This document shows, piece after piece, positions 3,996 through 58,023 of a stretch of DNA of 64,000 nt. The notes under the pieces were generated by a model that had not been told where the DNA came from, did not search any database, and was given only the letters and a program-made list of their open reading frames with translations. Location of the stretch: positions 96,001 through 160,000 of the IMG/VR virus record IMGVR_UViG_2731957577_000001. One strand, 5' to 3'. Within the stretch, counting starts at the first letter, position 1; the number at the start of each line of letters is the position of its first letter. A program made the translations under genes and the position numbers. Source of the DNA: a virus. Lineage: Duplodnaviria; Caudoviricetes.

Positions 3996-4017
3996 CCCTA
4001 AAATTCGGCGACAGCCG
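3996..4017 (-). promoter_or_regulatory. Hairpin element (candidate phage-RNAP promoter) upstream of dnaN
   Basis: Plus strand: CCCTAAAATT-CGGC-GACA-GCCG. Confidence 0.55.
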
Positions 4018-4020
4018 GCT

Positions 4021-4383
4021 TTAAGCCGTAACGGATTTGCGTTCGAGTTTCTGGATGGCGATGACTAACTGGACATCGAGTTCCTCCATCGTCTCCTCAT
4101 CGTAGATGGGCATACCCAACTTGGAGGCCACAAGGATCTCGAGTCTTGCGCCTTTTGAATCAAGCCAGTTCGGAAGGACCACCACTGCATCGGCATCCAA
4201 CATGGCCTTGATATCCCTACGCAGGTAATCCTCCCACGACCAACCCTCGACATAACCGAGCCGCGCGGGATTGATGACCTCATATCCCTTCTCATTCAGC
4301 CGTTCCTCAGCGGCGAAAAAGGCCTCATAGTTGTAGTTCTCCATTCCAGACATCGGGCCGCTGATGTAAATCTTCGTTGCCAT
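4021..4383 (-). CDS. DUF4406-family nucleoside deoxyribosyltransferase-like protein
   Basis: Start at MATKIYISGPMSG; NPA...W..Y...DI..M..AD...LP.W..SKGA.LE pattern. Confidence 0.82.
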   Translation of the reverse strand: MATKIYISGPMSGMENYNYEAFFAAEERLNEKGYEVINPARLGYVEGWSWEDYLRRDIKAMLDADAVVVLPNWLDSKGARLEILVASKLGMPIYDEETMEELDVQLVIAIQKLERKSVTA

Positions 4384-4409
4384 ACAAATACCCCTCAAGC
4401 AGAAGTTTT

Positions 4410-4697
4410 TTATCTCCAGGGGAGCGCGCCTGAAAGCAAGACGCTTGTCTCCACCTGTCCATCCCATTCTTTCGGGATCGTGACTTGGCCAGACTTCACA
4501 TCCACGATGATCGGATACTGATTGTCGGTGGAGTATGCAAATGTGCGAAGCCGACCTGTCTGCGGATCGTACTCCATCGAGGCCAACATCATGCCATCGA
4601 CCATGATCGCCACACCCGGACAAGGATCATCTGGGTATCTCATGACTTCAATCGTCCCAAGCGGAGTCTTCACCGGCTCCAACATCATCCCTCCCAT
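4410..4697 (-). CDS. Hypothetical protein
   Basis: ORF with RBS within the operon. Confidence 0.65.
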   Translation of the reverse strand: MGGMMLEPVKTPLGTIEVMRYPDDPCPGVAIMVDGMMLASMEYDPQTGRLRTFAYSTDNQYPIIVDVKSGQVTIPKEWDGQVETSVLLSGALPWR

Positions 4698-4700
4698 CCG

Positions 4701-5570
4701 TCAGCTCAAGATCAGCTCAAGCTGGCCTTGGGCTACTTTACGACTGTTGTCCGCAATCTTCATCGGAGGGTCATATGGATCGAACCCACCGAGGCCATCC
4801 GGCATCAAGGCGTACCAGGGCGCATACCAGAACATCTGGATCTTGCAAAGTTTGACCGCGACCAGATTCATGTCCACCGCATAGGCCCGAAGGATGTAAT
4901 TACTCTGCGGAAGAAGCATGGCACCGCACCCTACACTTGGTTCACAGGTAGTCTTTCTCTTGAGTGCCTCCGGGTCTTCCCCGCCCACCAACATCTTTGT
5001 CATCATCACGCACAGATGAAATGGAGTGGGAAAGTACCCGAGGGCGCCCCGGTATCCCCGACCCATTTCGTCACACAAGATTTGACTCATGTAGTCGGTC
5101 GGGTTATCCAGAACCAGAAACAGATCAAACATCCGGTAGTAATGCTCATTCAGTTCAGATGAGATGTCCGGCGGAGAGTTTCTGGCACCAAAACCCCAAA
5201 GCAACCAATCTGCAAACTTCTCAATATTGGACTCCCATCGATAATCCTCTAAGCACTTGGTAAGCATCTTATGGGTGGCGGCCACGCCCGAACTCCCTCG
5301 ATCTGCCCACTGGATTTGAGGAATCGGGCCGCTATCCGCAATCGTGCCTTTGGCTACGATGTCGAGCCACCAATTCCACCGACCCCAGAGCAGCTGGTCA
5401 TACGCAAGCAGGAATGGGAGCAACCAACCCTTCTTCTCGAAGACCTCGTTGGCGTTTTTCGGCGCGCCACCCATTGCGCTGGCACATTCGAAGAACGTGC
5501 TGTGCATCTCCAAGAGCTTTTCAGGATCGAATCGCTCAACGCGGTATAAGCTCGTTGATTTCTTCTTCAT
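4701..5570 (-). CDS. N6-adenine DNA methyltransferase-like protein (SAM-binding half only)
   Basis: GYFPTP and EPSVGCGAML motifs; no NPPY-type motif before the stop. Confidence 0.65.
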   Translation of the reverse strand: MKKKSTSLYRVERFDPEKLLEMHSTFFECASAMGGAPKNANEVFEKKGWLLPFLLAYDQLLWGRWNWWLDIVAKGTIADSGPIPQIQWADRGSSGVAATHKMLTKCLEDYRWESNIEKFADWLLWGFGARNSPPDISSELNEHYYRMFDLFLVLDNPTDYMSQILCDEMGRGYRGALGYFPTPFHLCVMMTKMLVGGEDPEALKRKTTCEPSVGCGAMLLPQSNYILRAYAVDMNLVAVKLCKIQMFWYAPWYALMPDGLGGFDPYDPPMKIADNSRKVAQGQLELILS

Positions 5571-6006
5571 CGTCTTCGTCCTCACCACAATGCACAATGA
5601 ACGAGTCAGGGACATACTCTCCATCGGGAAGCGCGCTCCACTTATACGCCTTCAGAACGGCTTCCTCCAGGCATTCAGCCTCAACCTTAACAACCCCGGA
5701 CATCGTCCAGCTTACAGGCAATCGATATGTCTTAGTGGTCCGATTCCCACGAAAGACCAGGCTCGGAGCGTCCTCTGAACTGCCGGGACGTTCCTCGAAG
5801 TCGGCTTCATTGAAGCTGTAGACTTGAGTGCCGATCCCATCATCCAAGATTTCAAATACGCGCGCGTCGTCCGTCTCGGGATCAAAATCTTTCCAAACCA
5901 CTTGAGCCAATGAGAGTCTTGCTTCCTCAAGGGTCGGCTTGGACCACAAATCCTCCACAATTCCACCGTTGGACACGATGCACACATACCTGGAAACAAT
6001 GTTCAT
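5536..6006 (-). CDS. Acidic hypothetical protein
   Basis: Start MNIVSRY after an AAAGGAG RBS. Confidence 0.6.
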   Translation of the reverse strand: MNIVSRYVCIVSNGGIVEDLWSKPTLEEARLSLAQVVWKDFDPETDDARVFEILDDGIGTQVYSFNEADFEERPGSSEDAPSLVFRGNRTTKTYRLPVSWTMSGVVKVEAECLEEAVLKAYKWSALPDGEYVPDSFIVHCGEDEDDEEEINELIPR

Positions 6007-6413
6007 CGATAAACTCCTTTCCAATAGATCGGATTGGCCAACAGATTCTGTAGGCATGTCGTAAATCCCGTGAAAATAAGTAGCTTTGGAAGAAAATCCA
6101 GTTCATCGAGGTCATACCAATCAAGAACCATCGGAAATACTCCTCTCCCCTCCGTCGATGCGGCGTTTGAGCCAAGAAAACGTGATTTTGAGGCGGCGGA
6201 ACACAAACGCAATCCCTTGAGTGGCCTCACCCCGATGATGAATGATCCCAAACCAATGGATGGCTCGGCCGGTATTGGTACGCCAAGAGTCGCCCTTGTG
6301 TTTCGCCCACGCCACGTATACCCCGTATCCCGCGAAGGCCAATCCACGCGCGGAGTAATCAGGGTCATCATGACGAATCCGAATCAACCATCTCACCACC
6401 AAACCGCCGGCGC

Positions 6414-9925: not shown

Positions 9926-9928
9926 CTC

Positions 9929-12323: not shown

Positions 12324-12365
12324 GAAACTCTCTTCCCTTCTCAAGACCTCCACATTTCAAGTCCC

Positions 12366-12394
12366 ATTATAGGAAAGAGAGAATTTCTTGGCAA
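12366..12394 (-). promoter_or_regulatory. Sigma-A promoter
   Basis: TTGCCA-N17-TATAAT on the minus strand. Confidence 0.7.
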
Positions 12395-12402
12395 ATATTT
12401 TG

Positions 12403-13543: not shown

Positions 13544-14935
13544 TCAGCCTGCAATCAAATGACGCTGGTTGTGCTTGTACGTATCCACCCGCGCCTTGAT
13601 CGACTCATAGCTCACCTCAAAGAGTTCGGATGCTTGCCGGATGTATATGTCCAGTTCAACCGGATCTTCAACCTGGCTCAGAACCTCGATGACTTTTCGC
13701 ATCCGTTCTTGTTGCAATTGTGCAATCTCGGATTGATGATAAAAGATCTGGTCATAGGTCTCACGATGAATCCGTTCCAACCGCCACTGACTTATGGTAC
13801 GCCGATGCTTCTCCATCCAGCGAAGCAGCTGATCAGGTTCATCTTCGAAGTTGTCACAAAGATCACAGGGATCTAGACCCTCTGGCATTGGGATGATAAA
13901 CGTCTGGATACCGTGAGACGTCAGCATCTTGGCATCCCGCTCGATGGCCTTCATGCCGGCTTCATCCCCATCTCGCATCGAGACGACCCGCTTCGCGCCG
14001 GCGCGCACCAAGAGTTTCGTCTGGGCTTCGGTGAGCGCGGTTCCCATCGTGCAGACGGCATTCTGGACACCATATTTGTGGAGCTTGATGACATCCGTCC
14101 AGCCCTCGACAATCACAGCTTCGCCCCACTGGCGAATGAACTCTTTTGCGATGTGCATGCCAAAGAGGTGATTGCCCTTGTCAAACTCCGGATACGGATG
14201 GTCCTTGTAATACGGGTCATCCGGCTTGATAGAGATTCGGTCCAGATACTTCACAATCGGCATCTTGCCTTCGGCCTGCAGTTTCTTGTTCGCCTCGGCC
14301 AACACGTTGGGAGGAAGCATCGTCCGGCCGGTAAAGCTGATGATGTTCCCGTGAAAGTCAAACAGGGTAAAGACGATGCGATCCTTGGTATTCCGAAAAT
14401 CATAGTCCACGTCATCACCAAAGCCGAGCTTCCAAAGCAAAATGTCTTGCATCGTGAACCCGCGCTGATAGAGGTATGCCAGAGCCTCTTTGTTGTTCAT
14501 GAGGTTCTGTTGAAACCGCTCAGCAGCTCGCTCACAATACTCAATCCACTTGGCGCGAAGATCCTGTTTTCGCTTGGCTTCAGGATCCAGAACCGGCAGT
14601 GGCTCACCTAGGAAGTTGGCCAACCACTCAATCGCTTCGCCAAGATTGCATCGTAAAATGCCCTTCAAGAAACCATACACATCACAAGACTGAACGGTGC
14701 TATGGTTTCTGGAACCAGCGCCACAGGCATAACAGCCAAAGGTCTGTTTGTCCGTCCGAACATGGAAACTCGGATTCTTTTCTTCATGAAACGGACAACA
14801 CGCCACATAGTCGCGGCCCATCTTCTTCAGCGGCACAAACTGAGAGATGACCGCCACAATGTCGGCCTTCGACTTCAGATACTCCTTGAATTCATCTGGA
14901 TAGTACGGCACATCGACCCTCCTCTCCTTGATCAA
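13544..14935 (-). CDS. dnaG: DNA primase
   Basis: CHC2 zinc finger CPFHEEKNPSF...CYAC; TOPRIM VEGWTD and DGDEAG. Confidence 0.95.
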   Translation of the reverse strand: MIKERRVDVPYYPDEFKEYLKSKADIVAVISQFVPLKKMGRDYVACCPFHEEKNPSFHVRTDKQTFGCYACGAGSRNHSTVQSCDVYGFLKGILRCNLGEAIEWLANFLGEPLPVLDPEAKRKQDLRAKWIEYCERAAERFQQNLMNNKEALAYLYQRGFTMQDILLWKLGFGDDVDYDFRNTKDRIVFTLFDFHGNIISFTGRTMLPPNVLAEANKKLQAEGKMPIVKYLDRISIKPDDPYYKDHPYPEFDKGNHLFGMHIAKEFIRQWGEAVIVEGWTDVIKLHKYGVQNAVCTMGTALTEAQTKLLVRAGAKRVVSMRDGDEAGMKAIERDAKMLTSHGIQTFIIPMPEGLDPCDLCDNFEDEPDQLLRWMEKHRRTISQWRLERIHRETYDQIFYHQSEIAQLQQERMRKVIEVLSQVEDPVELDIYIRQASELFEVSYESIKARVDTYKHNQRHLIAG

Positions 14936-15420
14936 ACTCCAAAAAGACGCGATAGCGACGATATCTCGACCTCGAAATCAACCTTCTTCACGCGCTTCGG
15001 AATGTAGCAACTGCCGTCTGGATTGTACTTGGCCGGAGATTGCTCCGGGAGGTCAAAAGTCCCATCAAGAGGTGTATGAAAAACATCGGATATAAGCCTT
15101 AGCATTCCAAACGAAGTTACATTCACGAAGCGGATCCGGGTGGCAGAGGGAAAATACTCGTGACAACGACTCTTCAACTCATTGAGCATCCTTCGGGCGA
15201 TCCCTTGTCTTTGATGCGACTTCTTGACCATGACCCAGGTACAGCGGACCACAGAAGGATCGGTGAGGTCTTTGAACACATGTATCTCGCCGATGTCTTT
15301 CCCATATTCAATCTTGAATCCGTAGCCGTCAGGCGCTATCGTAGACCAGGAAAGCGGTCGGGAATCCCTTTCCCGGTTCATCTCATTCCTCTTTGAATTC
15401 GTCCGGATAGTACGCCACAA
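14932..15420 (-). CDS. GNAT-family acetyltransferase-like protein
   Basis: VMVKKSHQRQGIARRML acetyl-CoA motif A. Confidence 0.7.
   Translation of the reverse strand: MWRTIRTNSKRNEMNRERDSRPLSWSTIAPDGYGFKIEYGKDIGEIHVFKDLTDPSVVRCTWVMVKKSHQRQGIARRMLNELKSRCHEYFPSATRIRFVNVTSFGMLRLISDVFHTPLDGTFDLPEQSPAKYNPDGSCYIPKRVKKVDFEVEISSLSRLFGV
14939..14959 (-). promoter_or_regulatory. Hairpin element upstream of the primase
   Basis: Plus strand: CCAAAAAGA-CGC-GATA-GCG. Confidence 0.5.
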
Positions 15421-15444: not shown

Positions 15445-15464
15445 CCCCTAAATGGAGCGATAGC
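15445..15464 (-). promoter_or_regulatory. Hairpin element
   Basis: Plus strand: CCCCTAAATGGA-GC-GATA-GC. Confidence 0.5.
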
Positions 15465-15467
15465 GAC

Positions 15468-15764
15468 TCAGTCATCGTCTTTCATAGTTGGCAGGATGCC
15501 CCGTTCAACATACTTTACGGCGTCCACTTCCTCGCAGACTTCACGGGCATGATCGCGAGCTGGCGCCTCACTGGCGTAGATGTACAGCTCACCCTCGACG
15601 GCCAATTTATCCCCGTCTTTATAGACGTCGAAAAGGCGTTCTCCGTACCAACCACGAAACGGCTCAAGGACAATCCAGTGATTCGGGAAATCCGGATGAT
15701 CCACTGGCCTTACAAACACCTTCTGGTTCGGATCGATACTTTCGACGTAAATGGTCCCCTTCAT
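15468..15764 (-). CDS. Hypothetical protein
   Basis: AGGAGG RBS, overlapping start and stop. Confidence 0.65.
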   Translation of the reverse strand: MKGTIYVESIDPNQKVFVRPVDHPDFPNHWIVLEPFRGWYGERLFDVYKDGDKLAVEGELYIYASEAPARDHAREVCEEVDAVKYVERGILPTMKDDD

Positions 15765-19796: not shown

Positions 19797-21746
19797 TCAA
19801 GATAGCTTCACTTTTTGCAGAATTTCTTCGGGAAGTTCGTCCAAGAACCGAGATGGCTTGACAGAAATCAGGCCGCGAGGCCCTTGCCGCATCGTAGTGT
19901 ATGTCAAGAAAAGACGTTTTTCTGCTCGGGTAATGCCGACATACGCAAGCCGACGTTCTTCCTCCAACTCATGCGCTTCCTTGCTACGCCAAGACGGAAA
20001 GACGCCTTCATTCATGCCGATGATAAAGACCACCGGAAACTCCAGGCCTTTACTGGAGTGCATGGTCATCAGCCGTACCGCGTTTTGGCCCTTTTCCTCC
20101 ACATCCGTGAGCAGCGAGATTTCCTGCAGAAAGTCTCCGAGTGTCTTGTCTGGATGGTCTTCTTGATACTGATGTACCAGTCGAAGAAACTCCTCCAGGT
20201 TATCCAGCTTGTCCTGGGCTTCTTTATTCTTGGTGTTCTGCCACATGGCCACGTAGCCCGTCTTATCTAAGACATACTTCACGAACTTCTCGAGATCGCG
20301 AGTCTGGTGGGCGCGCAGATCTTCCAGCAAAGACAAGAACACTTTTACCTTACCGTTGGTCGCTTTCTTGATCTGTTTGATGTCGTCAATGCTCCGCAAC
20401 GCCCGATGAATGCTGACTTTGTAGTCATTGGCGTACTTAATGATATGTTCTTCAGACGACTTCCCTATGCCGCGCGCGGGCTTATTCAGAATGCGAAGCA
20501 TCGCGGCATCATCCTTGGGGTTATGGATCACGCGAAGATACGAAACCGTGTCCTTGATCTCCTCCCGTTCAAAGAACGCAGACCCACCCACGACCTTATA
20601 CGGAATGAAGTTCGGCACAAAGAGTTGCTCTAGGGCCAGAGATTGTGCATTGTTCCGGTAGAGCACGGCGAAGTCTGACCACGCATACCCTTCTTCCATG
20701 ACCATCTTCTTGATCTTTGAAGCCACGTATGCCGATTCCTTGCGCTCATCGGACAGCTCGATGACCTGGATGGCATGGCCGCCTTTCTTGTCCGTGAAGA
20801 GGTTCTTCTCTTTCTGGTTTGGATTGTGTTTCATGATCATGTTTCCGGCATGGACAATGACCTCGGTGGACCGGTAGTTCTGGTCCAGATAAATCGTCGT
20901 GCAAGGGAAGAACTTGCGCTCGAAGGACAGAATGTTCGAGATGTCGGATCCGCGGAAACCATAGATGGACTGATAGTCATCGCCCACGACAAATAGATTG
21001 TTCTGTGGCCAAGCCAGGTACGACAGAAGCATGAACTGCGCATGATTGACGTCCTGATACTCGTCCGCAAAGACGAACTTAAAACGGTTCTGCCAATACT
21101 CGCGGGCACCTGGAAAGTCGTTCAGGATCTGAACGGTGTTCATGATAAGGTCGCCAAAATCCATCGCATTGGCTTCCTTCATGAACTCTTGATACTTGGC
21201 ATAGACCTGGGCCATGACCTCATATGTGGGCGAATCCGCGAGATTATACAGACACCAATCGGGAGTATGCAGAAGGTTCTTGGCTTGATCAATGTAATGC
21301 AATGCCAGACCTTCTTTATAGTCCTCCTCAATGCCCATCATCTTGTAGATGCGTTCAAGAAGTTTGAGCTGGTCGCTAGTGTCATAGATGACAAAATTGC
21401 GTTCATAGCCGAGAAGATGTGCGTATTTGCGGAGAATGCGGACACAAAGGGAGTGAAAGGTCCCCATCCAGATTTGCGCCGCCTTCTCTTCACCGATCAC
21501 CTTCGTGATGCGCTCTTTCATCTCGCGCGCGGCCTTGTTGGTGAAGGTGGCGACAAACATCTCACTGGGCTGAACGCCATGATTCGCAATCATGTTGGCG
21601 ATGCGAACGGTCATCGTGCGCGTCTTACCCGAACCGGCGCCAGCCAACACGAGGACGGGCCCATAAATCGTTTCGGCCGCCTGCCGTTGATTCGGATTGA
21701 GTTCGGACAGCATCTGCTCAATTGGGGTGGTTGTTATTGTGGTCAT
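19797..21746 (-). CDS. pcrA: PcrA/UvrD superfamily 1 helicase
   Basis: AGAGSGKT, DEYQD, VGDDYQSIYGFRG, TMHSSKGLEF, ERRLAYVGITRA. Confidence 0.95.
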   Translation of the reverse strand: MTTITTTPIEQMLSELNPNQRQAAETIYGPVLVLAGAGSGKTRTMTVRIANMIANHGVQPSEMFVATFTNKAAREMKERITKVIGEEKAAQIWMGTFHSLCVRILRKYAHLLGYERNFVIYDTSDQLKLLERIYKMMGIEEDYKEGLALHYIDQAKNLLHTPDWCLYNLADSPTYEVMAQVYAKYQEFMKEANAMDFGDLIMNTVQILNDFPGAREYWQNRFKFVFADEYQDVNHAQFMLLSYLAWPQNNLFVVGDDYQSIYGFRGSDISNILSFERKFFPCTTIYLDQNYRSTEVIVHAGNMIMKHNPNQKEKNLFTDKKGGHAIQVIELSDERKESAYVASKIKKMVMEEGYAWSDFAVLYRNNAQSLALEQLFVPNFIPYKVVGGSAFFEREEIKDTVSYLRVIHNPKDDAAMLRILNKPARGIGKSSEEHIIKYANDYKVSIHRALRSIDDIKQIKKATNGKVKVFLSLLEDLRAHQTRDLEKFVKYVLDKTGYVAMWQNTKNKEAQDKLDNLEEFLRLVHQYQEDHPDKTLGDFLQEISLLTDVEEKGQNAVRLMTMHSSKGLEFPVVFIIGMNEGVFPSWRSKEAHELEEERRLAYVGITRAEKRLFLTYTTMRQGPRGLISVKPSRFLDELPEEILQKVKLS

Positions 21747-21975: not shown

Positions 21976-21984
21976 TCCTTTCTA

Positions 21985-22003
21985 CAAAATGGAGCGATAG
22001 CTC
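21985..22003 (-). promoter_or_regulatory. Hairpin element
   Basis: Plus strand: CAAAATG-GAGC-GATA-GCTC. Confidence 0.55.
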
Positions 22004-22519
22004 TTATCCAACCTGAATATCCTGATAAAGCTCACGCAGGCGCTTGATCCCGTTTTGATAATGGTACTGGACGGTTCCTGGATGAACACCACACAACTTG
22101 GCGATGTCGGTGAACATCCAACCCTCCACGTCATGAAAGAAGATGGCTTCCGCCTGTGCCTTGGTCAGCACGTTGGTTCGAATCCAGTAACGCAATGCGC
22201 GTAACACACGGTCATACGTTTTGTCCTCTTGGTAGACGGGAGCGGGAATGCGCACAATGAATTCCCGAATCTCTGGGTCCGGCGAGGTATCGATGCTCAT
22301 CTTGTTGTTCACGCGTTGGTAGTTGATGCGCTTTGCCAAACGCGACTTGGCGTGGGTCCCTTGAATCCGCCACAGTGCGTACTCTTGGAGAACATCATCC
22401 TTGGTCATGCCGCGCTTTCTAGCCAGCGCCGCCAGCGATTTCGGGCTGACCTGAAGGTGAGGGTTGATGCCTTCCAGCGCACGCTCAATGTCCTTATAGT
22501 CCAGAATAAGTGCAGTCAT
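22004..22519 (-). CDS. Sigma-70 region-4 HTH protein (sigma-like regulator)
   Basis: LTKAQAEAI...EGWMFTDIAKLCGVHPGTVQYHYQNGIKRLR. Confidence 0.7.
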   Translation of the reverse strand: MTALILDYKDIERALEGINPHLQVSPKSLAALARKRGMTKDDVLQEYALWRIQGTHAKSRLAKRINYQRVNNKMSIDTSPDPEIREFIVRIPAPVYQEDKTYDRVLRALRYWIRTNVLTKAQAEAIFFHDVEGWMFTDIAKLCGVHPGTVQYHYQNGIKRLRELYQDIQVG

Positions 22520-31890: not shown

Positions 31891-31895
31891 ACCTC

Positions 31896-31916
31896 CTGAA
31901 AATCCGGCGATAGCCG
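31896..31916 (-). promoter_or_regulatory. Hairpin element
   Basis: Plus strand: CTGAAAATC-CGGC-GATA-GCCG. Confidence 0.55.
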
Positions 31917-31920
31917 TGGA

Positions 31921-32304
31921 TTATGCGACCGCGTTCGTCGAGGGGCTCTTTTGAATCAGCTCGTCGACGTAATGCAACAACACATCCAGAGAAGCTGTAT
32001 CATTGATGCCCTGCAGTTCTTCAAGTTCATCGCGGGTCAGGCCCAATGCTTCAAGGGTTTCGACATAGTCACATCCCGACTCGCCGTCTCTCTCATAGGC
32101 CTCATAGAAGTCGCAGGCATCCGACCCATACTCCATCTGAAGGCCGTAGATATCCGAATCACTAAGCCCCGCGATTTTCAGCAAATGACCCACCGAGCAG
32201 TAATGACAAACGCCATTGTCGTCCCGTACAATCAGACTTCCAAACGCCCTTCCTTGCTCCTCTAAACGCGTCCTGAGTGCTTGTAAGGCCTCTACACGAG
32301 TCAT
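31921..32304 (-). CDS. Hypothetical protein
   Basis: C.VG...LQ.IND pattern; RBS. Confidence 0.65.
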   Translation of the reverse strand: MTRVEALQALRTRLEEQGRAFGSLIVRDDNGVCHYCSVGHLLKIAGLSDSDIYGLQMEYGSDACDFYEAYERDGESGCDYVETLEALGLTRDELEELQGINDTASLDVLLHYVDELIQKSPSTNAVA

Positions 32305-32319
32305 ACATCGTCCCTCCTA

Positions 32320-32490
32320 TCAAAATAGCGACAGCTGGCCATGGACGGCCTTTTGTGTGGAATCCACTTCTTGCATTACACCAGGGCGTTTACCGGGGAT
32401 ACACGGATGAGAGATGACCACAGCGCCCTTGATGACGGTGATCTCATACCCGCACTTGGGGCACCGCAACAACACCATTTCTTTGGTCAC
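32320..32490 (-). CDS. 56-aa Zn-ribbon peptide ending in the clamp-binding motif QLSLF (not in the ORF track)
   Basis: MTKEMVLLRCPKCG...GQLSLF*; GTGA overlap with the upstream gene. Confidence 0.6.
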   Translation of the reverse strand: MTKEMVLLRCPKCGYEITVIKGAVVISHPCIPGKRPGVMQEVDSTQKAVHGQLSLF

Positions 32491-37091: not shown

Positions 37092-37823
37092 TTAGCGTTG
37101 ATACGTGCCAACGGGTGCGCCAAATCCCTGTGGCGCGCCAAACCCGCCGGGTTGCGGGCCGCCTTGAGGTCCTTGTGGGCCACCGAATCCAGGCTGGGCA
37201 AAGCCGCCTTGTCCACCCTGCGGGGCACCAAACTGGGACTGATTGAAACCGCCTTGCGGCTGACCGAATCCTCCCTGTGGAGCCCCCTGGAATCCACCCT
37301 GTGGCTGGCCAAAGCCGCCCTGCTGGGGCGCTTGCGGCTGCCCAAAACCACCTTGCTGCGGATAGCCGCCTTGTTGTGGCGCAAAACCACCTTGATTTTG
37401 CGGCGCAGGCGCCTGCTGGCCTTGCTGCTGGTTGTGCGTCGAAGCCGGCTCACCAAAGCCTCGGAGATAATTCACCCGAATGGTCGGATAGATCCGTCCG
37501 TCCTGACCCTTATTGAGAACCGGCGTCCCTTTGACGAACAAGGCGCGCCCCTTATAGCAATGATCCATCAAAAAGTTGTGCATGGACGCGCGATCCGGAG
37601 ACGACGCATAGACTTCGAGCTTCCAGTAATCCGGATCCTCCTTGTTCGCCACATTCACCGCAAGGTTCGCATTGGCAACCTTGGCCCCGTTGTTCAGGGG
37701 CACCGAGTAGGCATGCACGCGCTCCCCGGTGTTGGGATCTTTGATCGTCGAGAGATTGCCAAACACCTCGATCTCTGCGTAATCGGAACGCCCACCGGAG
37801 TTGTTTCCATTCTGATTGGCCAT
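37092..37823 (-). CDS. Divergent single-stranded DNA-binding protein with a G/Q/F/P-rich repeat tail
   Basis: OB-fold N-terminus (GNL...VAN.NLAVN...KG..LFV.G); (GGFGQPQ)n tail. Confidence 0.75.
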   Translation of the reverse strand: MANQNGNNSGGRSDYAEIEVFGNLSTIKDPNTGERVHAYSVPLNNGAKVANANLAVNVANKEDPDYWKLEVYASSPDRASMHNFLMDHCYKGRALFVKGTPVLNKGQDGRIYPTIRVNYLRGFGEPASTHNQQQGQQAPAPQNQGGFAPQQGGYPQQGGFGQPQAPQQGGFGQPQGGFQGAPQGGFGQPQGGFNQSQFGAPQGGQGGFAQPGFGGPQGPQGGPQPGGFGAPQGFGAPVGTYQR

Positions 37824-37855: not shown

Positions 37856-37875
37856 CCCCAAAATGAAGCGATAGC
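37856..37875 (-). promoter_or_regulatory. Hairpin element upstream of ssb-recA
   Basis: Plus strand: CCCCAAAATGAA-GC-GATA-GC. Confidence 0.5.
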
Positions 37876-37877
37876 GG

Positions 37878-38057
37878 CTAATAGGACAGCTTGTAGAGAA
37901 TCTTCCGGTCCTCCCGGATGATCTCGGTGACATGGAGAATGTGGACCGAACCATCCGCCATCTCCACTTGGAGCGGGGTTCCGACTTCCACATCTCGATT
38001 GGCGGGATACATGAAATCCTGCTCCTTTCCATCCGGGAAAACGAGCACGTTTCGCAT
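37878..38057 (-). CDS. Hypothetical protein
   Basis: Start MRNVLVFPDG. Confidence 0.6.
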   Translation of the reverse strand: MRNVLVFPDGKEQDFMYPANRDVEVGTPLQVEMADGSVHILHVTEIIREDRKILYKLSY

Positions 38058-40007: not shown

Positions 40008-40062
40008 AAAAAGTCCATGATGGGATAATCATAACACTCGGTGAAAGGCATTACAATACAAC

Positions 40063-40082
40063 CGCAAAACCGGCGATAGCCG
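40063..40082 (-). promoter_or_regulatory. Hairpin element, with an operator copy at 40042-40055
   Basis: Plus strand: CGCAAAAC-CGGC-GATA-GCCG. Confidence 0.5.
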
Positions 40083-40931
40083 TCAATGCAACACCCGAGT
40101 GGATTCCTGGATCACATCCTCGGGGAGATACACGGGGCGGGAAAGTGCCGTTCGGGCATTGAAGTTCGTATAGTGAGAGACGACTTCCCCACTAGAGAGA
40201 ATCGTATTGAGATACGAGGCAGCGATGAGCGCAGCCATTTCATTGGTCTGCATGCGCTGTGGCGCGTCCACCACCGTTTGGCCACAGGACTGCGTCGGAA
40301 GCCGGGAATCCTTATCCTCAAGGATATCCGGATACACCTCACCGACAGGCCCTAGAACGGTCTTCCCATGGATTTTGACACCACAGACGACATGTCCACC
40401 ATACCCGCTTTCTGCAATCTCTTCCTCGCTGCCTTCGGTCAACACAGCCTCGACACCGGTATCGATGTAGACCACCGTACCTTTGGATCCTTCAAACCAA
40501 GCATGCATCACTTGGCGAGAGGCATGATTGTCCACACAGCCAATGAGAATCCGAATGAGACGCCGGTATGCTGGAAAGACACCAAAACACGATTCAACGT
40601 CCTCAGGCGTCTCCACATACGACTCCTTATAGAACACCGGGATGTCGTAGACGGTACCATAACGCTCCGCGAGGACCTTAGACTTGGGGAGTCCAAGGTC
40701 CTCCGCGATGCAAGGCTGACGGAGAAGGTTCTTGGATTCGAACCGGTCTCCGTCGACGATGCAATAGCGAAAGCTGTCCAATGTACCTGCGGCATGGAAA
40801 GCATACAACATCTTGGCCAGTCTCTGGGTCAGGTATCCGCCATTTCCACCCGCACCTACCTGCACGATGTCAAAATGAAAATGGTGGGGCGTCCGATGAC
40901 GTGGCCAGACCCGAAGCACGGGATGAAACAT
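40083..40931 (-). CDS. ThiF/E1-like ubiquitin-activating enzyme (PRTRC-type)
   Basis: VGAGGNGG, VDGDRFE.KNL.RQ, K..VLAERY, GCVDN..SR, SC...Q...TN..AA. Confidence 0.9.
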   Translation of the reverse strand: MFHPVLRVWPRHRTPHHFHFDIVQVGAGGNGGYLTQRLAKMLYAFHAAGTLDSFRYCIVDGDRFESKNLLRQPCIAEDLGLPKSKVLAERYGTVYDIPVFYKESYVETPEDVESCFGVFPAYRRLIRILIGCVDNHASRQVMHAWFEGSKGTVVYIDTGVEAVLTEGSEEEIAESGYGGHVVCGVKIHGKTVLGPVGEVYPDILEDKDSRLPTQSCGQTVVDAPQRMQTNEMAALIAASYLNTILSSGEVVSHYTNFNARTALSRPVYLPEDVIQESTRVLH

Positions 40932-41034
40932 ATCCTCCCTCCCGTTATGTGGAAAGTATCGCGGCAAAGCGCGGCAGAAGCAGTTGATCCTGTCGACTCA
41001 ATGCCGTGTCTAGATACCGACACACTTCATAGAT

Positions 41035-41439
41035 TCAACCTTTCTTGGCTCCCTTAACGACCGGAACGATCTGTTTCTTCTCGGCATCAACCAGCATCTC
41101 GGTGCGCTCTTTTGACAGCTCAGGATAATCCGCCTCGAGCATCTGCCGGACTTCTTCCACCGTCATCTCATCCCGCGGCACGGGGATCTGATAGCCGGCA
41201 TAGTACACCATATAGTCTGTGCCAACCTTCTCAGGCGTCTTGGTGACGGTCTTCTTGACTGTGGTATTCTTCGACGACCGTTTCTGCGGCTTCGATGTTT
41301 CTGGCTCCTCAATCTCACCAAAGAGGTTGGTTACCGGTTCGTCGTCCTCTGGTTGCGGAGCGGCCGCTTCTGGTTGGTATCGATTCAATTCCTCGTTCGT
41401 GGTCACCTGATCCTCACGTTCCAGTTCCAAATCTGCCAT
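41035..41439 (-). CDS. Prokaryotic ubiquitin-like protein (PRTRC protein C-like) with an acidic disordered N-terminus
   Basis: MTVEEVRQMLEADYPELS...KGAKKG* ending in Gly. Confidence 0.75.
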   Translation of the reverse strand: MADLELEREDQVTTNEELNRYQPEAAAPQPEDDEPVTNLFGEIEEPETSKPQKRSSKNTTVKKTVTKTPEKVGTDYMVYYAGYQIPVPRDEMTVEEVRQMLEADYPELSKERTEMLVDAEKKQIVPVVKGAKKG

Positions 41440-41454
41440 GGGTCCTCTCTCCTC

Positions 41455-41628
41455 TCAGTCCAAGGAATCATAGAATTTTCGAATCATCGAGCCGATGATT
41501 TTCCATCCGATGTACACCACGAGAGCAAAAATCACGATGGGTGCAAGGAACATCAACACATGAAAGGCAATGTAGAGCACCAGCAAAATCAGGGCAATGA
41601 GACACAGAAATCGAAGCACAGGATTCAC
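41455..41628 (-). CDS. 57-aa membrane protein inside the E2-Ubl-E1 operon (not in the ORF track)
   Basis: MNPVLRFLCLIALILLVLYIAFHVLMFLAPIVIFALVVYIGWK... Confidence 0.55.
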   Translation of the reverse strand: MNPVLRFLCLIALILLVLYIAFHVLMFLAPIVIFALVVYIGWKIIGSMIRKFYDSLD

Positions 41629-41641
41629 CTCATATTCTTGA

Positions 41642-42322
41642 TCACCGCCGAATGGTTTTCTCGGCCCATTCGGAGAAGGTGAGGTTCAGCGGTGTCAAAA
41701 TGTCATTGTCAAACTCACCTCCCTGAAAGGTATCAAAAACTTGGCGCAGGGGCCAACCGGTCTGATTCGACCGTCCTTGAATGTAGAGGTGGTCATTATT
41801 CGGGGTTTGTACCCACCGATATGGAAACGTCTGTAGCTGAGTCAGAGACTTGACTTTCTCGTTGTCAAAGTAACAAAGCATCCCTCCGTGGTGGACGTTT
41901 GAATAGGGAAACTGATAGACTGGTGAATCGTCTTTCAGGAACTGGTCGGTATAACAGCACACAGCCGCATGGACCAGGCGCTCCCCTTTCACCCGGAAAG
42001 CAAAAACCATTTTGGGATAGGGCACTTGGTGAAAGGTATCCGTGTGGTACACGACGTCAAACTGTCCGCCTTCCCAGGTCAAAAAGACCCACTCCGACTC
42101 ATCCCCCATCTTGGCGTATTTGACCGTCCCGGGCGGCAGGGTCGGTGACGCAGCAACGAGCTCATATTGCTGGGCGGATGATTCCGAAGGCTCAATGGAC
42201 GAGAGTTCAATATAGTGCAACAAGCGATCGGTGGTGATATGAAACGAGCGCTTGACCCCGTCGTCATCAAACTCAATCAGGGGCAAGTGCTCATCATCCA
42301 ACGTGATTACAACGGCAGCCAT
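41642..42322 (-). CDS. Prokaryotic E2 family D protein (PRTRC protein B-like)
   Basis: VPYPKMVF...YQFPYSNV..GG.LC...NDHL. Confidence 0.8.
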   Translation of the reverse strand: MAAVVITLDDEHLPLIEFDDDGVKRSFHITTDRLLHYIELSSIEPSESSAQQYELVAASPTLPPGTVKYAKMGDESEWVFLTWEGGQFDVVYHTDTFHQVPYPKMVFAFRVKGERLVHAAVCCYTDQFLKDDSPVYQFPYSNVHHGGMLCYFDNEKVKSLTQLQTFPYRWVQTPNNDHLYIQGRSNQTGWPLRQVFDTFQGGEFDNDILTPLNLTFSEWAEKTIRR

Positions 42323-46580: not shown

Positions 46581-46604
46581 CCCCTAAATGCGGTGATAAC
46601 CGCA
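46581..46604 (-). promoter_or_regulatory. Hairpin element
   Basis: Plus strand: CCCCTAAA-TGCGGT-GATA-ACCGCA. Confidence 0.6.
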
Positions 46605-46613
46605 ACAAAGAGG

Positions 46614-47196: not shown

Positions 47197-47271
47197 GGGT
47201 TGCCGTGGGTAATTCCCCAAAAGGCGCCGAAAGGCGCAGGAAAAAGATTGTCAGAATCATGATCCAATCGA

Positions 47272-50197: not shown

Positions 50198-50223
50198 CCC
50201 CAAAATCCGCTGATAAGCGGATT
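50198..50223 (-). promoter_or_regulatory. Hairpin element
   Basis: Plus strand: CCCCAA-AATCCGCT-GATA-AGCGGATT. Confidence 0.6.
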
Positions 50224-51083
50224 CTTAAAGCCGGACATTGACATACGAACCTTTGACCTCCCGCAGAGGCGACACATAGGCCTGACAGACGGAAGAAGGC
50301 AGGGGACAAAGTGGCTGAGAAGGAATCGGGATCACAACGAGCATGGTGGGAACCAAGGGTAGGGGAGGGGGCAAGGCTGGCGTCGATTCCTCGGATTCCC
50401 GAAGGGCCTCCTGCAAGATGCGTTCAAATTCACTGGTCATGCATTTCAACTCCAAGAGGGGTCAAGAGTCGGGGAGGAGCAACCAAGAACTGACAACTAA
50501 AAAGCGAACAAACCGGGGTGAAAATACGAACATCATGTGAACTTTTTAAGAAGGAAATATCTAGGGTTCATTTTCCATAGGTTTGACCGGTCTTAATGGT
50601 TTATAGAGAGGCTTCGAACAGGGAGGGAGATGACGAACCGTGAGTTCCATGAAACCCGAGTTCAAAGAGAAAAAGAACGTCATCCCCCAAAACCCCAGTG
50701 ACCTTGAGGAACACCCGATCCAAGCCAAAAGCAGGAGATGAGACCATGAGAACCCGAGGACCATGAAGCACAAACGCATGAAACCTCCAGGCCGGGGCCA
50801 TCGTATGCCCTTTTCCAGGGCGGAGGCATTGGGCTATACATTGGGGTGGGCTGACAGGAAGGATGGAGGCTTCATTCTCAACATGTCGCTGAATGAACTC
50901 AGAATATCCGCCGCGCGCACCGCCGGGCCGCCCTTGCAAATGGGGTTCAGCTGAATACATTTAAGAGATAGCCGGACCTGCTAGAACCATCACAAGTACC
51001 AGTCACAGTCAATACAGTCACCTCCAATTGGAAAGGTGGGTCCGGCTTTCTCCCAAAAACACGCGTACATAATTGGTCCATCG

Positions 51084-51575: not shown

Positions 51576-51626
51576 GAATGCGGGACCAAAGGCCCCGCAT
51601 TATGTTTCAAGGTCAAAACGATAAGT

Positions 51627-52999: not shown

Positions 53000-53044
53000 G
53001 ATCTCATCATCTCCTCTGTTACTACTAAGACGGAAAACTATTCA

Positions 53045-53064
53045 CCAAAAATGCCGATAGGCAT
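53045..53064 (-). promoter_or_regulatory. Hairpin element directly after a terminator, upstream of ssb
   Basis: Plus strand: CCAAAA-ATGCC-GATA-GGCAT; terminator GCGGC-TTCG-GCCGC-TCTTTTTT at 53065-53086. Confidence 0.6.
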
Positions 53065-53112
53065 AAAAAAGAGCGGCCGAAGCCGCATATAGGGAAGGAG
53101 ATAATGAACTGC

Positions 53113-54766: not shown

Positions 54767-54776
54767 GAAATGCACC

Positions 54777-55022: not shown

Positions 55023-55024
55023 CC

Positions 55025-55267
55025 CTAATCAATCAACAACCGACCATCCTCACTAACCCACCCAAGGCGGAGGGCGAAGGCAAAAGCCACAGATCCATTC
55101 CCATATAACACCGCGGTACCATCTCGAAAATGCTCCATCATGTCAGGATATACTAACTTGAATAACTCCGTAGGAGACAGGTTCATCACGTCTTTCCGCT
55201 TGTACCCGAGGTAGGTCACCAAGTGCGCGCGGCAACACCGGGCCAGATGCCTCTCCAGTTCCTCCAC
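55025..55267 (-). CDS. Hypothetical protein
   Basis: AGGAGG RBS before GTG; the longer track start lies inside the IS. Confidence 0.55.
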   Translation of the reverse strand: MEELERHLARCCRAHLVTYLGYKRKDVMNLSPTELFKLVYPDMMEHFRDGTAVLYGNGSVAFAFALRLGWVSEDGRLLID

Positions 55268-55350
55268 AATGCCACCTCCTATCCTGAAGACTAAAGTCTC
55301 TCGATCCACAAAATATAATGGCCTTAAGAATTTAGACACGAAAAAAGGAT

Positions 55351-55665
55351 GTGTTAAGTTGTATGTCAGCGATACGAAGGAACCATCCTCCGGAATTCAA
55401 GGCCAAGGTTGTACTGGAAATTTTGCGAGAAGAAAAATCGATTTCCGAGCTGGCTTCCGAGCATGGGATTCACCCCAATGTCCTTCAGCGGTGGAAAAAT
55501 GATGTCGTTCAAAATCTGGCGCAACTTTTTGTCGATGATCGCAAGGGCATTACGAAAATGAAAAACGAATACGAACAGAAAATCAACCAACTCTATGCGG
55601 AGGTGGGAAAACTTACGACACAGAACGCATGGCTCAAAAAAAAATCTGGCCTCCCGATTGACTAG
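55351..55665 (+). CDS. IS3 transposase OrfA
   Basis: EFKAKVVLE...SELASEHGIHP HTH; ends at an A9 slippery site (WLKKKSG). Confidence 0.9.
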   Translation: MLSCMSAIRRNHPPEFKAKVVLEILREEKSISELASEHGIHPNVLQRWKNDVVQNLAQLFVDDRKGITKMKNEYEQKINQLYAEVGKLTTQNAWLKKKSGLPID

Positions 55666-56521
55666 ACAAGAGCGTTTGGCATTGCTGGATTGGGATTGTA
55701 CCGAACTGCCGCTCAGTCAACAAGCAGAGCTTCTCAGTCTCAATCGATCCAGTTTGTATTACCAGCCAAGACCGCCGTCGCCGGAAGAAGTGGCCATCAA
55801 ACATGCCATCGATCGGATCTATACCCAATACCCGATGTTCGGTTCAAGGCGCATCACTGCGATTCTCAGACGGGATGAAGGCTTCCGTGTTCACCGCAGC
55901 ACGATTCAGCGTTATATGCAGGAGATGGGAATATCCGCCATCTATCCCGGTCCCAATCTCAGCAAGCGTCATTTGCAACATCGCATTTATCCGTATTTGC
56001 TCCGCGGTCTGGACATCGTCCGACCGAATCAGGTGTGGGGCATTGATCTGACTTACATCCGATTGCAGCGCGGCTGGATGTATCTGGTCGCCGTCCTGGA
56101 TTGGTATTCCCGGTATGTCGTCGCCTGGCAGCTGGATCAGAGCCTGGAGATCGATTTCGTCCTGGAAACGGTGAAAACCGCTTTGGCTGTGAACAAGCCT
56201 GAAATATGGAACAGCGATCAGGGCAGCCATTTTACCAGTCCACAGTACATCGAACTGTTGAAAGCCGAACAAATCCGCATCAGCATGGATGGGAAAGGAC
56301 GGGCTGTGGACAACATTTTCACCGAACGGTTTTGGCGCAGTCTCAAATACGAGGAAGTCTATCTTCACGATTACGCCAATCCGCGAGAAGCTCGAAAAGG
56401 CATTACCCGGTACATCGAACTCTACAATCATTACCGGCCTCATCAATCCTTGAACAATCATACGCCGGCATCGATCTACTGGGGAAACGTGCAACTGCCC
56501 GATCTGGTTATCCACAGGTAA
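55595..56521 (+). CDS. IS3 transposase OrfB (DDE), expressed by -1 frameshift
   Basis: W..DLTYI, NSDQGSHF, DNIFTERFWRSLKYE. Confidence 0.93.
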   Translation: MRRWENLRHRTHGSKKNLASRLTRQERLALLDWDCTELPLSQQAELLSLNRSSLYYQPRPPSPEEVAIKHAIDRIYTQYPMFGSRRITAILRRDEGFRVHRSTIQRYMQEMGISAIYPGPNLSKRHLQHRIYPYLLRGLDIVRPNQVWGIDLTYIRLQRGWMYLVAVLDWYSRYVVAWQLDQSLEIDFVLETVKTALAVNKPEIWNSDQGSHFTSPQYIELLKAEQIRISMDGKGRAVDNIFTERFWRSLKYEEVYLHDYANPREARKGITRYIELYNHYRPHQSLNNHTPASIYWGNVQLPDLVIHR

Positions 56522-56711
56522 GCCTGAATACAAGGCGGGCTCCCGCGCTTCGCTTGGGCTATGTCCGCCACCAGTGGACAGTCTCACTATCCATCATATT
56601 CCAATTATGGAATCCGAGAATGGGGGTAAGATAAACAAAACAAAAGACTTTGTGAAAATATTCACCCCTTAATTTTTTTGAAAATCTGTCTTGACAAATA
56701 GGGCCACCTTA

Positions 56712-56916
56712 AAACGAGGTCGCGGGGAATGCCATATATCCAAGGACGCTCTTTCTGAACCTCAATCTCAAAAAGCTCTTGGTTATACGAGAGCAACTTC
56801 CCCTTTAACACTTTGACCTTCGCATCCCTGATATAGCCGTCTATATACTCAACACGAACCATATCTCCAACCTCAAAGGTGCGCCTGCATTCAAGATACT
56901 CTTGAACCAACTCCAT
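56712..56916 (-). pseudogene. MEL-family barrel gene interrupted near its 3' end by IS3
   Basis: Removing the IS restores IPRDLVL-WIERL* (stop at 55291-55293). Confidence 0.75.
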
Positions 56917-56953
56917 ACACATTTCTCCTTCACAAATCCCGAAGGGCATTACA

Positions 56954-57202
56954 TCACCAAGGCTTATCCAGCTTCTCTATCGAGAGAAGAAGGGCGCGGG
57001 GAAGGGCATACATGCAATGATACTTATTCCTCACATGAATCGTTTGATCATCATAGTCCACCAACTCACCCCGGCATACGTTCACCTTGGATAAACCCCG
57101 AAACACTTCTATGTACGCTACACGAACCATGTCTCCAACCCTAAAGTACCGGTCACACAGGATACACCCATCCCGTTGAAGATACTCACTGACTAGTTCC
57201 AC
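56954..57202 (-). CDS. MEL-family SH3/Sm-like small protein
   Basis: MELVSEY...F.VGDMVRV.Y...G.LV.YD...LPR.LL.SIEKL. Confidence 0.7.
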   Translation of the reverse strand: MELVSEYLQRDGCILCDRYFRVGDMVRVAYIEVFRGLSKVNVCRGELVDYDDQTIHVRNKYHCMYALPRALLLSIEKLDKPW

Positions 57203-57440
57203 ACGTCATCACCTTACTCACAGACACCAAAAGCCTTATCGGAATCCTCCTTGCCGTATCTTTACCCTCCAGCCATATATCCTCCTCATCAAACTCCACT
57301 AGCTTGCCCCGAAACACACGCTGTTTAATACCGTGCGGGGATAAATCAAAGTACACCACACCCACGGTCTCACCACGCTGAACATAGCAACCATTTAGGA
57401 CAAAGCTCTTGTCCCTTATGTATTCACGAACTAGTTCCAT
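57186..57440 (-). CDS. MEL-family SH3/Sm-like small protein
   Basis: MELVREY...GETV.V.Y...GKLVEFD...IPIRLL.SV.K. Confidence 0.7.
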   Translation of the reverse strand: MELVREYIRDKSFVLNGCYVQRGETVGVVYFDLSPHGIKQRVFRGKLVEFDEEDIWLEGKDTARRIPIRLLVSVSKVMTCGTSQ

Positions 57441-57441
57441 A

Positions 57442-57675
57442 TCACCACCCCATATGCACTTCAATATACTCAATGCTCCGGATCGACATCGTAATCCAAG
57501 AGCCACTCCTGGTCTCAATGGCGACTTGTTCCTCTGAAAGCCACACTACACGTCCATCATAGTCGGTGCCACGATAGCGAAGAGATACTACGTCGCCAAC
57601 ACATACTTCGATACCACGAATGAGCACGGACTGTGGATTCAATCGACCACTGTATGCTTTGATCAACTCCATCAT
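57442..57675 (-). CDS. MEL-family SH3/Sm-like small protein
   Basis: MELIKAY...VGDVV...Y.GRVV...I..IE.I. Confidence 0.65.
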   Translation of the reverse strand: MMELIKAYSGRLNPQSVLIRGIEVCVGDVVSLRYRGTDYDGRVVWLSEEQVAIETRSGSWITMSIRSIEYIEVHMGW

Positions 57676-57989
57676 ATAACCCCCAAGGTGGCGCATCCAT
57701 TCTCCAAGATGAGCCGACAGGATTCTTGGGTAAGGAAAGGACGGCGGGGAAGATGAAGCCGCCCTAACACCCAATGTACTCTGCAATATAGTCCGTAATC
57801 ACACCCTCATCCTCTGGTTCATATCCATGCCGTTCACAATACCGACGATAATGCAGGCTGTTTCCATCACTTGTCACCCATGCACGTAACTCTTTATCAT
57901 ACCAGTACAAAGTCACTGAATTCTGCATAAACAACACTCCTTTCCGAGCTTCATGAACAAGTCACAGCACATTCATCACAAATCGCTCT

Positions 57990-58023
57990 CCTAAATCAGC
58001 CGATAGGCTTGAAGGGCATTACA
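57990..58023 (-). promoter_or_regulatory. Hairpin element abutting an operator copy
   Basis: Plus strand: CCTAAATC-AGCC-GATA-GGCT, then TGAAGGGCATTACA. Confidence 0.6.

Follow-up and report, generated by a model that had tools for sequence, protein, structure and literature searches.

Covarying hairpins with a loop-fixed tail downstream of a YonO-like RNA polymerase gene: candidate hairpin promoters of a phage-like element

Which sequences does a single-chain, two-barrel phage RNA polymerase use as promoters? For YonO, gp99 and their relatives these are undefined, and a set of small hairpins in the DNA described here gives a testable candidate. The DNA is a stretch of 64 000 nt (G000:C7:96001-160000, 'the window' throughout) of C7, a 198-kb contig with 52% G+C. 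The genome that carries C7 is a 3.6-Mb assembly with 60% G+C from the Alicyclobacillaceae, and the host RpoB is 92–96% identical to Alicyclobacillus sequences. The element is most likely a 0305phi8-36-like jumbo phage or a phage-plasmid of this host. Nearly all genes of the window lie on the minus strand and form an early and replication module, at the head of which stands the gene for a YonO/QDE-1-like two-barrel RNA polymerase (58520–61795, minus strand; C7:154523-157795). The product has 1091 aa, matches the Pfam family RdRP (PF05183), carries an intact GGADNDGD motif and is the sole PF05183 protein encoded in the whole genome. Downstream of the gene lie 13 hairpins, and we estimate a probability of about one half that they are promoters read by this enzyme; that they are promoters of a phage-directed polymerase of whatever kind has somewhat better odds.

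A preliminary description of the window, made from its letters, listed eleven of these hairpins, and its account of their layout was confirmed. All eleven loops (starting at 4010, 14951, 15459, 21996, 31909, 37870, 40075, 46595, 50212, 53056 and 58002) read GATA on the plus strand (GACA at 4010), are flanked by complementary arms and are preceded by an A-run. The stems have 4–8 bp, with only 2–3 bp at 14951, 15459 and 37870; a purine (RNA sense) stands 11 nt past the loop at nine of the eleven sites, and every copy has the same orientation. Two further copies were found, with loops GACA at 32330 and GAAA at 47229–47232, bringing the total to 13. Read on the gene strand, each site consists of a stem, the loop TATC (TGTC at 4010 and 32330, TTTC at 47229), the complementary stem and a tail. 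The tail, (A/T)TTT(T/A), follows exactly five bases past the loop and gives way to a G-rich stretch, with a ribosome-binding site 1–30 nt further on. On the template strand the same site reads as a C-run, AAAAT, a 5-nt arm and the GATA, GACA or GAAA loop. Stems of 2–8 bp all have the tail starting at +6 from the loop, so that its position is set from the loop rather than from the base of the stem.

The motif and its covariation are well established in the window. Hairpins with a GA[TC]A loop, a stem of at least 4 bp and an A-run number ten on the plus strand against one on the minus strand. The pattern TATC-N5-WTTTW has nine matches, all on the minus strand, where 1.06 are expected, and none of 100 shuffled sequences reached nine. 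Stem cells are paired in 81.8% of cases in the window copies compared with 57% after shuffling (0/500 shuffles), double changes occur at all five stem pairs, and sliding destroys the register. A search of the window against Rfam gave no match at the gathering score.

The hairpins are confined to one region. A covariance model of the kind proposed in the preliminary description (R1), built from the eleven sites first listed, finds 12 copies in the whole 3.6-Mb genome, all on the minus strand of C7 (C7:99990-154017). This array begins ∼ 500 bp downstream of the polymerase gene and spans 54 kb; the remaining 140 kb of the contig hold no copy found by R1, and the sole other match in the genome has E = 2.1. 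Thirty related genomes gave no R1 match at E ≤ 0.05, and none of these has the polymerase, which was sought in the genomes of 60 relatives and detected in none. The predicted co-occurrence with this polymerase family was borne out in that the motif is confined to the polymerase-bearing element, and ten polymerase-bearing relatives each have a version of their own.

Homologues of the polymerase (31–47% identity) are encoded on contigs of ∼ 155–230 kb from Paenibacillus, Virgibacillus, Oceanobacillus, Bacillus haynesii and metagenomes. These relatives have a common neighbourhood, with a ParM-like gene and a terminase gene upstream on the other strand and small genes, YAcAr/YpsA and RNase H downstream. 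A tblastn search of the window polymerase against 50 697 phage records returned no match, though gp99 of 0305phi8-36 aligns with it pairwise. All ten related elements examined (polymerase identity 23–47%) carry at least two GC-clamped tetraloop hairpins on the polymerase strand downstream of the gene. The Paenibacillus rhizovicinus plasmid has 11 copies, which on the gene strand consist of a 3–5 bp stem with a T(A/G)TC loop, then CATTC, four bases and (T/C)GA; one metagenomic relative has the same type. Paenibacillus sp. UNC496MF has six copies with the loop TGAC and a similar tail. The version in Oceanobacillus profundus and a near-identical metagenome contig is TGCC-TATC-GGCA, while Virgibacillus and two further metagenome elements have loops TGTC/TATC or TAAC/TAAT. 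In 0305phi8-36 the core CGT-TCGC-ACG occurs in 19 exact copies on the gene strand and in none on the other; the outer stems covary, and the T-rich spacer ends in TGTA. Because the tail differs, R1 gives only weak matches on the Paenibacillus plasmid, and the family was recovered there by hairpin scanning.

When 54 sites from six elements are aligned on the loop, its first and last bases are invariant and correspond to G..A on the template strand, where the loops read GATA, GACA, GAAA, GTCA and GCGA. Of the 54 sites, 34 have C-G as the closing pair; in 0305phi8-36 and two window copies it is T-A. Pairing again exceeds that of shuffled sets (86% of cells versus 50%; 0/500), and compensatory changes are seen at every pair. 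The four inner pairs comprise 209 Watson–Crick pairs and no G-U. Past the perfect stem, the first non-Watson–Crick pair is G-T (gene strand) in 16 of 52 cases and A-C in four of 52, an excess explained by the T-rich tail; within the first five positions the counts are three and three. Fixed geometry recurs as well: 0305phi8-36 has GTA at +13 for stems of 6, 7 and 8 bp, and the Paenibacillus plasmid has G at +16 for stems of 4 and 5 bp. Conserved loop ends on a freely varying stem, a tail fixed from the loop, and loops and tails specific to each lineage speak for a protein reader that recognizes the loop and gauges a distance from it along the strand.

Where do the hairpins lie with respect to genes? 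All 13 window copies are outside coding sequence or overlap only the last few codons of the upstream open reading frame (ORF). Across the window and relatives, 47 of 68 sites (among them two Paenibacillus sites with an ORF overlooked by annotation) are followed by a ribosome-binding site, a start codon and an ORF of at least 30 aa starting 20–80 nt past the loop, compared with 17% of random positions. Where relatives have a long gap after the polymerase gene, the hairpin is found 45–65 nt before the next gene and 0.5–1.2 kb after the polymerase stop codon. The terminator noted ahead of the 53056 copy is real, and the copy lies 16 nt past it, in the classic order of terminator and promoter.

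Host-type signals are present in the window too. In a sigma-A scan the motif shows no −35/−10 layout, and gaps that contain it score 5–8 of 13, the exception being that at 40075 (score 10), the sole window copy followed by a good sigma-A-like match; a sigma-dependent reading of the motif was accordingly set low. Motif-free gaps often have good sigma-A-like boxes, for example TTGCCA-17-TATAAT at 12353–12402 and a TATAAT after the terminator at about 11745. Good boxes in motif-free gaps and poor ones in motif gaps suggest that two promoter classes work side by side, with host-type signals interleaved with the hairpin motif.

We return here to the reading in which the hairpins are promoters of the YonO-like polymerase, and picture it as follows. 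Under negative supercoiling the short inverted repeat would extrude, and the template-strand arm would fold into a mini-hairpin capped by a G-N-N-A tetraloop. The polymerase would recognize the loop and closing pair, measure a fixed distance along the A-rich template and start at the template C-run. The RNA would thus begin with G ∼ 11 nt past the loop and 5–30 nt ahead of the ribosome-binding site. Expression of the polymerase gene itself would come first and depend on another promoter, after which the hairpin promoters would activate the 54 kb behind it. Initiation at the sites, a DNA (not an RNA) structure and the choice of reader are all inferred. The broader proposal, that a two-barrel YonO/QDE-1-like polymerase has independently evolved promoters made of extruded template-strand G-N-N-A hairpins, and that a whole lineage of ∼ 200-kb phages and phage-plasmids of Bacillus relatives relies on them for its early and replication programme, we advance tentatively, and hold it a little less probable than not. 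The preliminary description had put forward hairpin promoters of this polymerase. Confinement, recurrence in relatives, the GNNA loop and an N4-like layout speak for that part, whereas its choice of reader is weakened by a second polymerase candidate and a sigma-like gene.

Several observations weigh against the proposal. Across lineages there is no common distance from the loop to the purine, which stands at +11 in the window, +13 in 0305phi8-36 and +16 in the Paenibacillus clade. Thirty-six of the 68 copies lie within ∼ 25 nt of the end of the upstream ORF, compared with 12% of controls; judged by position alone, a gene-end or intercistronic processing signal is therefore nearly as good a fit. 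Three window copies have a perfect stem of only 2–3 bp, and predicted DNA hairpin energies are as weak as −0.8 kcal/mol. Nine other predicted terminators of the window are not followed by the motif, so the hairpin cannot be the sole promoter type. The 0305phi8-36 copies, with stems of 6–8 bp and a mostly T-rich tail, resemble terminators, and two more distant elements have the loops ATCC and T(G/C)AT, which do not give G..A on the template strand. The link with the polymerase cannot be separated from that with every other gene common to these syntenic relatives. Finally, other candidate readers are present, namely an Rpb1-like ORF on C7 (a weak match) and the sigma-like gene of the window.

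The strongest competitor, though clearly behind the polymerase promoters and on balance unlikely, is that the hairpins are processing or stabilizing sites in polycistronic RNAs. A phage or host endoribonuclease would read the RNA hairpin and its tail and cut at a set distance, leaving upstream messages with a 3' hairpin cap and giving downstream genes 5' ends of their own. RNase III sites lie between T7 genes, and the short spacers occupied here, after stop codons (36/68) and before ribosome-binding sites (47/68), are of that kind. The loop-anchored geometry would suit a ruler-type nuclease equally, and lineage-specific loops and tails suggest a co-evolving phage-encoded reader. However, the lack of any G-U among the 209 inner pairs is unusual for a family of RNA helices, and stems of 2–5 bp are far shorter than RNase III substrates. 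In the RNA sense the loop is U-N-N-C, for which we know of no stable RNA tetraloop class, whereas the opposite strand forms a known stable DNA loop. At several sites the stem runs into the upstream stop codon, and terminating ribosomes would therefore hold the RNA hairpin open. No candidate nuclease was identified, and the Rfam search of the window also fails to support this alternative.

Less probable still is that the hairpins are weak or polymerase-specific terminators, attenuators or pause sites at gene ends. A hairpin followed by a T-run is indeed what is seen in the window (ATTTT) and in 0305phi8-36, and half of the copies are near upstream stop codons. A passage in Hardies et al. (PMC2147016) names a hairpin with oligo-T after orf81 a terminator, and a motif copy lies 11 nt past orf81. 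Yet intrinsic termination needs no conserved loop bases, and the tail here is placed by the loop and not by the stem base. U-rich tails are missing from the Paenibacillus clades (CATTC...), as from the 0305phi8-36 copy that precedes the polymerase gene. The predicted RNA hairpin energies average −5.5 kcal/mol (range −0.6 to −9.6), against −14 to −18 kcal/mol for the ordinary, canonical terminators of the window and a typical criterion of −8 or better. Strong canonical terminators are found at about 11745, 18703, 24112, 30383, 39412, 43339, 45399 and 51578, and a further one directly precedes a motif copy, as described above. At eight or more of the 13 window copies the next ribosome-binding site is less than 25 nt from the tail, so that an efficient terminator would leave dnaN, dnaG, ssb and others without a promoter.

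We give about the same low weight to the possibility that the hairpins are promoters with another reader: either a second, beta/beta-prime-like polymerase encoded beside the tail genes elsewhere on C7 and possibly injected, as in phage P23-45, or the host polymerase together with a phage sigma-like protein. The first candidate is an ORF of at least 1844 aa that runs off the start of its locus (C7:8001-19823, outside the window) and matches RNA_pol_Rpb1_2 at E = 5.6e-4, below the Pfam cut-off. The next protein, of 2091 aa, carries a glucosaminidase domain at its C-terminus (tail-lysin-like), and the ORF itself could possibly be a second, tail-associated RNA polymerase by analogy with gp96 of P23-45. 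Thermus phage P23-45 sets the precedent of virion and non-virion two-barrel polymerases, each with a different promoter motif, and in N4 it is an injected polymerase that reads the hairpin promoters. The second candidate is the gene at 22004–22519 (minus strand), whose 171-aa product matches Sigma70 region 4 (Pfam, 1.2e-8) and PHROG sigma factor families and is possibly a regulator of the phage sigma or anti-sigma-like kind; the stem of the 21996 copy extends over the stop codon of this gene. Against a sigma-like reader stand the missing −35/−10 layout and the motif gaps poor in sigma-A boxes, with one exception. In addition, the relevant passages of Hardies et al. (PMC2147016) report that no sigma factor was found in 0305phi8-36, which bears the motif. 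In the window and every relative the array starts only downstream of the YonO-like gene, save for two upstream copies in 0305phi8-36, an arrangement that fits a cascade with the YonO-like gene expressed first.

DNA-level signals apart from transcription, such as single-strand priming sites or recombination or packaging marks, would suit the strict Watson–Crick pairing, the restriction to one strand of a replication-gene region and an element that encodes a primase, SSB and recombinases, but are very improbable in view of the narrowly set, non-random spacing to the ribosome-binding sites and start codons downstream, the avoidance of coding sequence (one 0305phi8-36 copy inside annotated gp47 being a possible exception), the irregular spacing of the window copies (0.4–11 kb) and the empty remainder of the contig.

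A search for PF00940 (T7-like polymerase) found nothing in the genome, and the control genomes gave no match either; the dedicated polymerases seen in the element are of two-barrel types only. Two of the polymerase homologues (P0019 and P0034) have a Rho_N domain (PF07498, SAP-like) in their precomputed Pfam annotation, possibly an appended DNA- or RNA-binding module.

Followed in the direction of transcription, with all features on the minus strand, the array opens with the copy at 57988–58014 (loop 58002–58005, 4-bp stem; R1 E = 1.5e-3), the first downstream of the polymerase gene and placed before small genes. The second, at 53042–53068 (loop 53056–53059, 5-bp stem), is ahead of ssb and right after the canonical intrinsic terminator at 53065–53090, which has a 5-bp GC stem, a TTCG loop and a T-run. 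At the third (50198–50224; loop 50212–50215, 8-bp stem) the stem borders directly on the upstream stop codon and the ribosome-binding site is 13 nt past the tail. The additional copy at 47215–47241 (loop GAAA 47229–47232, 5-bp stem, usual tail) follows the YpsA-like gene and has a covariance-model E-value of 0.04. The best R1 match (E = 1.5e-4) is the copy at 46581–46607 (loop 46595–46598), with a 6-bp stem and a T-A closing pair. The copy at 40061–40087 (loop 40075–40078, 4-bp stem) overlaps the stop codon of the ThiF/E1-like gene, and that at 37856–37882 (loop 37870–37873) has two perfect base pairs and precedes a 243-aa gene without assigned family. The other additional copy, at 32318–32342 (loop GACA 32330–32333, 3-bp stem), has its tail 2 nt closer to the loop and is found 26 nt ahead of a start codon and ∼ 150 nt past the previous gene.

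At 31895–31921 (loop 31909–31912, 4-bp stem) the ribosome-binding site comes directly after the T-run. The copy at 21982–22008 (loop 21996–21999, 4-bp stem), which overlaps the stop codon of the sigma-like gene, is ahead of a small gene and PcrA/UvrD. Next are the copies at 15445–15471 (loop 15459–15462, two perfect base pairs), ahead of a truncated paralogue of the DnaG N-terminus, and at 14937–14963 (loop 14951–14954, 3-bp stem), ahead of the DnaG primase gene. The last copy, at 3996–4022 (loop GACA 4010–4013, 4-bp stem), precedes the gene for the DnaN sliding clamp. The first ∼ 160 codons of DnaG are duplicated in tandem (14932–15420 versus 13544–14935; both start V-x-Y-Y-P-D-E-F-K-E), with one motif ahead of each copy, and the hairpins at 14951 and 15459 are therefore not independent.

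The module includes genes for DnaN, DnaG, ERF, PcrA/UvrD, ThyX, RecA, UDG and SSB, as well as two SNF2 helicases, two RNase H genes, a YpsA-like gene, an E1/E2 pair and the sigma-region-4-like gene. Pfam supports the names DnaN, DnaG, PcrA/UvrD, RecA and SSB used in the preliminary description, except that the ssb label given there to the gene after the 37870 copy did not hold: the gene directly following that copy (37092–37823, 243 aa) has no SSB signature in Pfam or PHROGs, and RecA is encoded further downstream. The ThiF/E1-like and prokaryotic E2 family D genes (40083–42322, minus strand), with ORFs of 134 aa and 57 aa between them, are a ubiquitin-like conjugation pair within the phage replication module.

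Divergent and convergent junctions, at which a promoter could be told from a terminator, were sought and yielded no clean case; almost all genes are co-oriented. The few opposite-strand insertions in relatives carry MerR-type or other promoters. One copy in L044 follows two small opposite-strand ORFs, possibly spurious. In L042 a hairpin of the GCCCC-ATCC-GGGGC type on the polymerase strand (18158, plus strand) lies between two opposite-strand genes in a block that includes a PemK toxin gene; it is a bidirectional signal or else was orphaned by an insertion. Most relatives (L017, L018, L020, L041, L042, L043 and L044) also have an ORF-poor gap of 0.4–1.2 kb after the polymerase gene, which may encode a non-coding RNA, by analogy with one reported upstream of yonK in SPbeta. 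The 0305phi8-36 genome (NC_009760) has a tandem pair of hairpin cores at 71–110 and again at 212540–212579, ∼ 70 bp inside the inner boundary of the terminal repeat; the left copy therefore points at the physical genome end.

If the hairpins are indeed promoters of the YonO-like polymerase, theirs would be the second system known in which an extruded DNA hairpin serves for promoter recognition, here by a polymerase of unrelated fold, and it would offer orthogonal polymerase–promoter pairs for Gram-positive synthetic biology. Were they processing or pause signals instead, they would still make up a regulatory element conserved in a jumbo-phage lineage about which little is known. Material for experiments is at hand in the 13 sites described here, dozens more in relatives, natural compensatory stem variants, loops and tails specific to each lineage, and a culturable relative, 0305phi8-36, which grows on Bacillus thuringiensis.

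How does the motif compare with known systems? It shares with intrinsic terminators a GC-rich hairpin followed by T residues and a place after stop codons. It differs from them in its weaker stems, conserved loop, loop-anchored tail, tails that are not U-rich in sister lineages, and want of space for a downstream promoter.

YonO of SPbeta is likewise a single-chain two-barrel DNA-dependent RNA polymerase of a large temperate Bacillus phage, but it is very distant in sequence from the window polymerase and transcribes late genes from one start, whereas here early genes would be served from many. Forrest et al. (2017; PMC5467207) mapped a single promoter, P-yonO, and explicitly left the promoter sequence undefined. 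The forward primer of that mapping covers a 6-bp hairpin with a T-N-N-C gene-strand loop. Divergent SPbeta-like phages retain the potential for a hairpin at this place, though with other stem sequences. The region that served for the mapping, between yonN and yonK of SPbeta (L021, ∼ 20540–20640), has a sequence-conserved 8-bp hairpin and, ∼ 70 nt downstream, a second one whose stems vary yet stay complementary in divergent SPbeta-like phages (TGGAGA/TCTCCA, GGGG/CCCC, GGC/GCC). The resemblance at P-yonO, for which the published start is genome position 2225998, is a lead only.

A counterpart is found in 0305phi8-36, a phage of the same lineage. Its right arm shares with the window the gene order polymerase, small genes, YpsA/DUF1273, helicases, UDG and clamp, and gp99 is 23% identical to the window polymerase (E = 6e-14). 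There too a repeated motif occupies short non-coding gaps of the non-structural arm, lies on the gene strand and is absent from the host. It reads TCGC with a T-rich stretch ending in TGTA (gene-strand sense), compared with TATC and ATTTW-GGGG in the window. The preliminary description knew of no account of such promoters for YonO-like enzymes, which is too strong: Hardies, Thomas and Serwer (2007; PMC2147016) suggested that a 21-bp motif with 14 copies supplies the middle promoters of the RdRP-like gp99, and inferred two promoter classes in this phage. In the passages concerned (PMC2147016) the motif is put forward as a proposal and represented by a sequence logo, without hairpin, covariation or template-strand G-N-N-A loop; it is very probably the hairpin family seen here. 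A literature search for later work on promoters of these polymerases found none.

Promoters formed by a template-strand hairpin are known from coliphage N4, where the virion RNA polymerase reads them as early promoters (Dai & Rothman-Denes 1997/1998; Gleghorn et al. 2008; summarized in PMC13492108). They start ∼ 11 nt from the loop centre, need supercoiling and SSB, and are inactive on relaxed duplex. The N4 P2 promoter oligonucleotide consists of a start C, AAAA, a five-base arm and a GGA loop (PMC13492108). Both systems have a small template-strand DNA hairpin (a stem of 5–7 bp in N4, 2–8 bp here), a purine-rich GC-closed loop, a template A-run between the hairpin and the start C, which is a candidate start here, and a fixed loop-to-start geometry (PMC13492108). 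In both, too, a phage-encoded single-chain polymerase and an SSB gene are at hand. The loop has three nucleotides in N4 and four (G-N-N-A) here, where its C-G-closed template-strand form, in the window and in relatives, belongs to the class d(cGNNAg), described as unusually stable DNA tetraloops in a passage of PMC10085684 that cites Nakano et al. (2002). The N4 enzyme is T7-like, whereas the candidate reader here is of the two-barrel YonO/QDE-1-like type, and the three N4 promoters at one genome end contrast with 13 candidate copies over 54 kb of early and replication genes.

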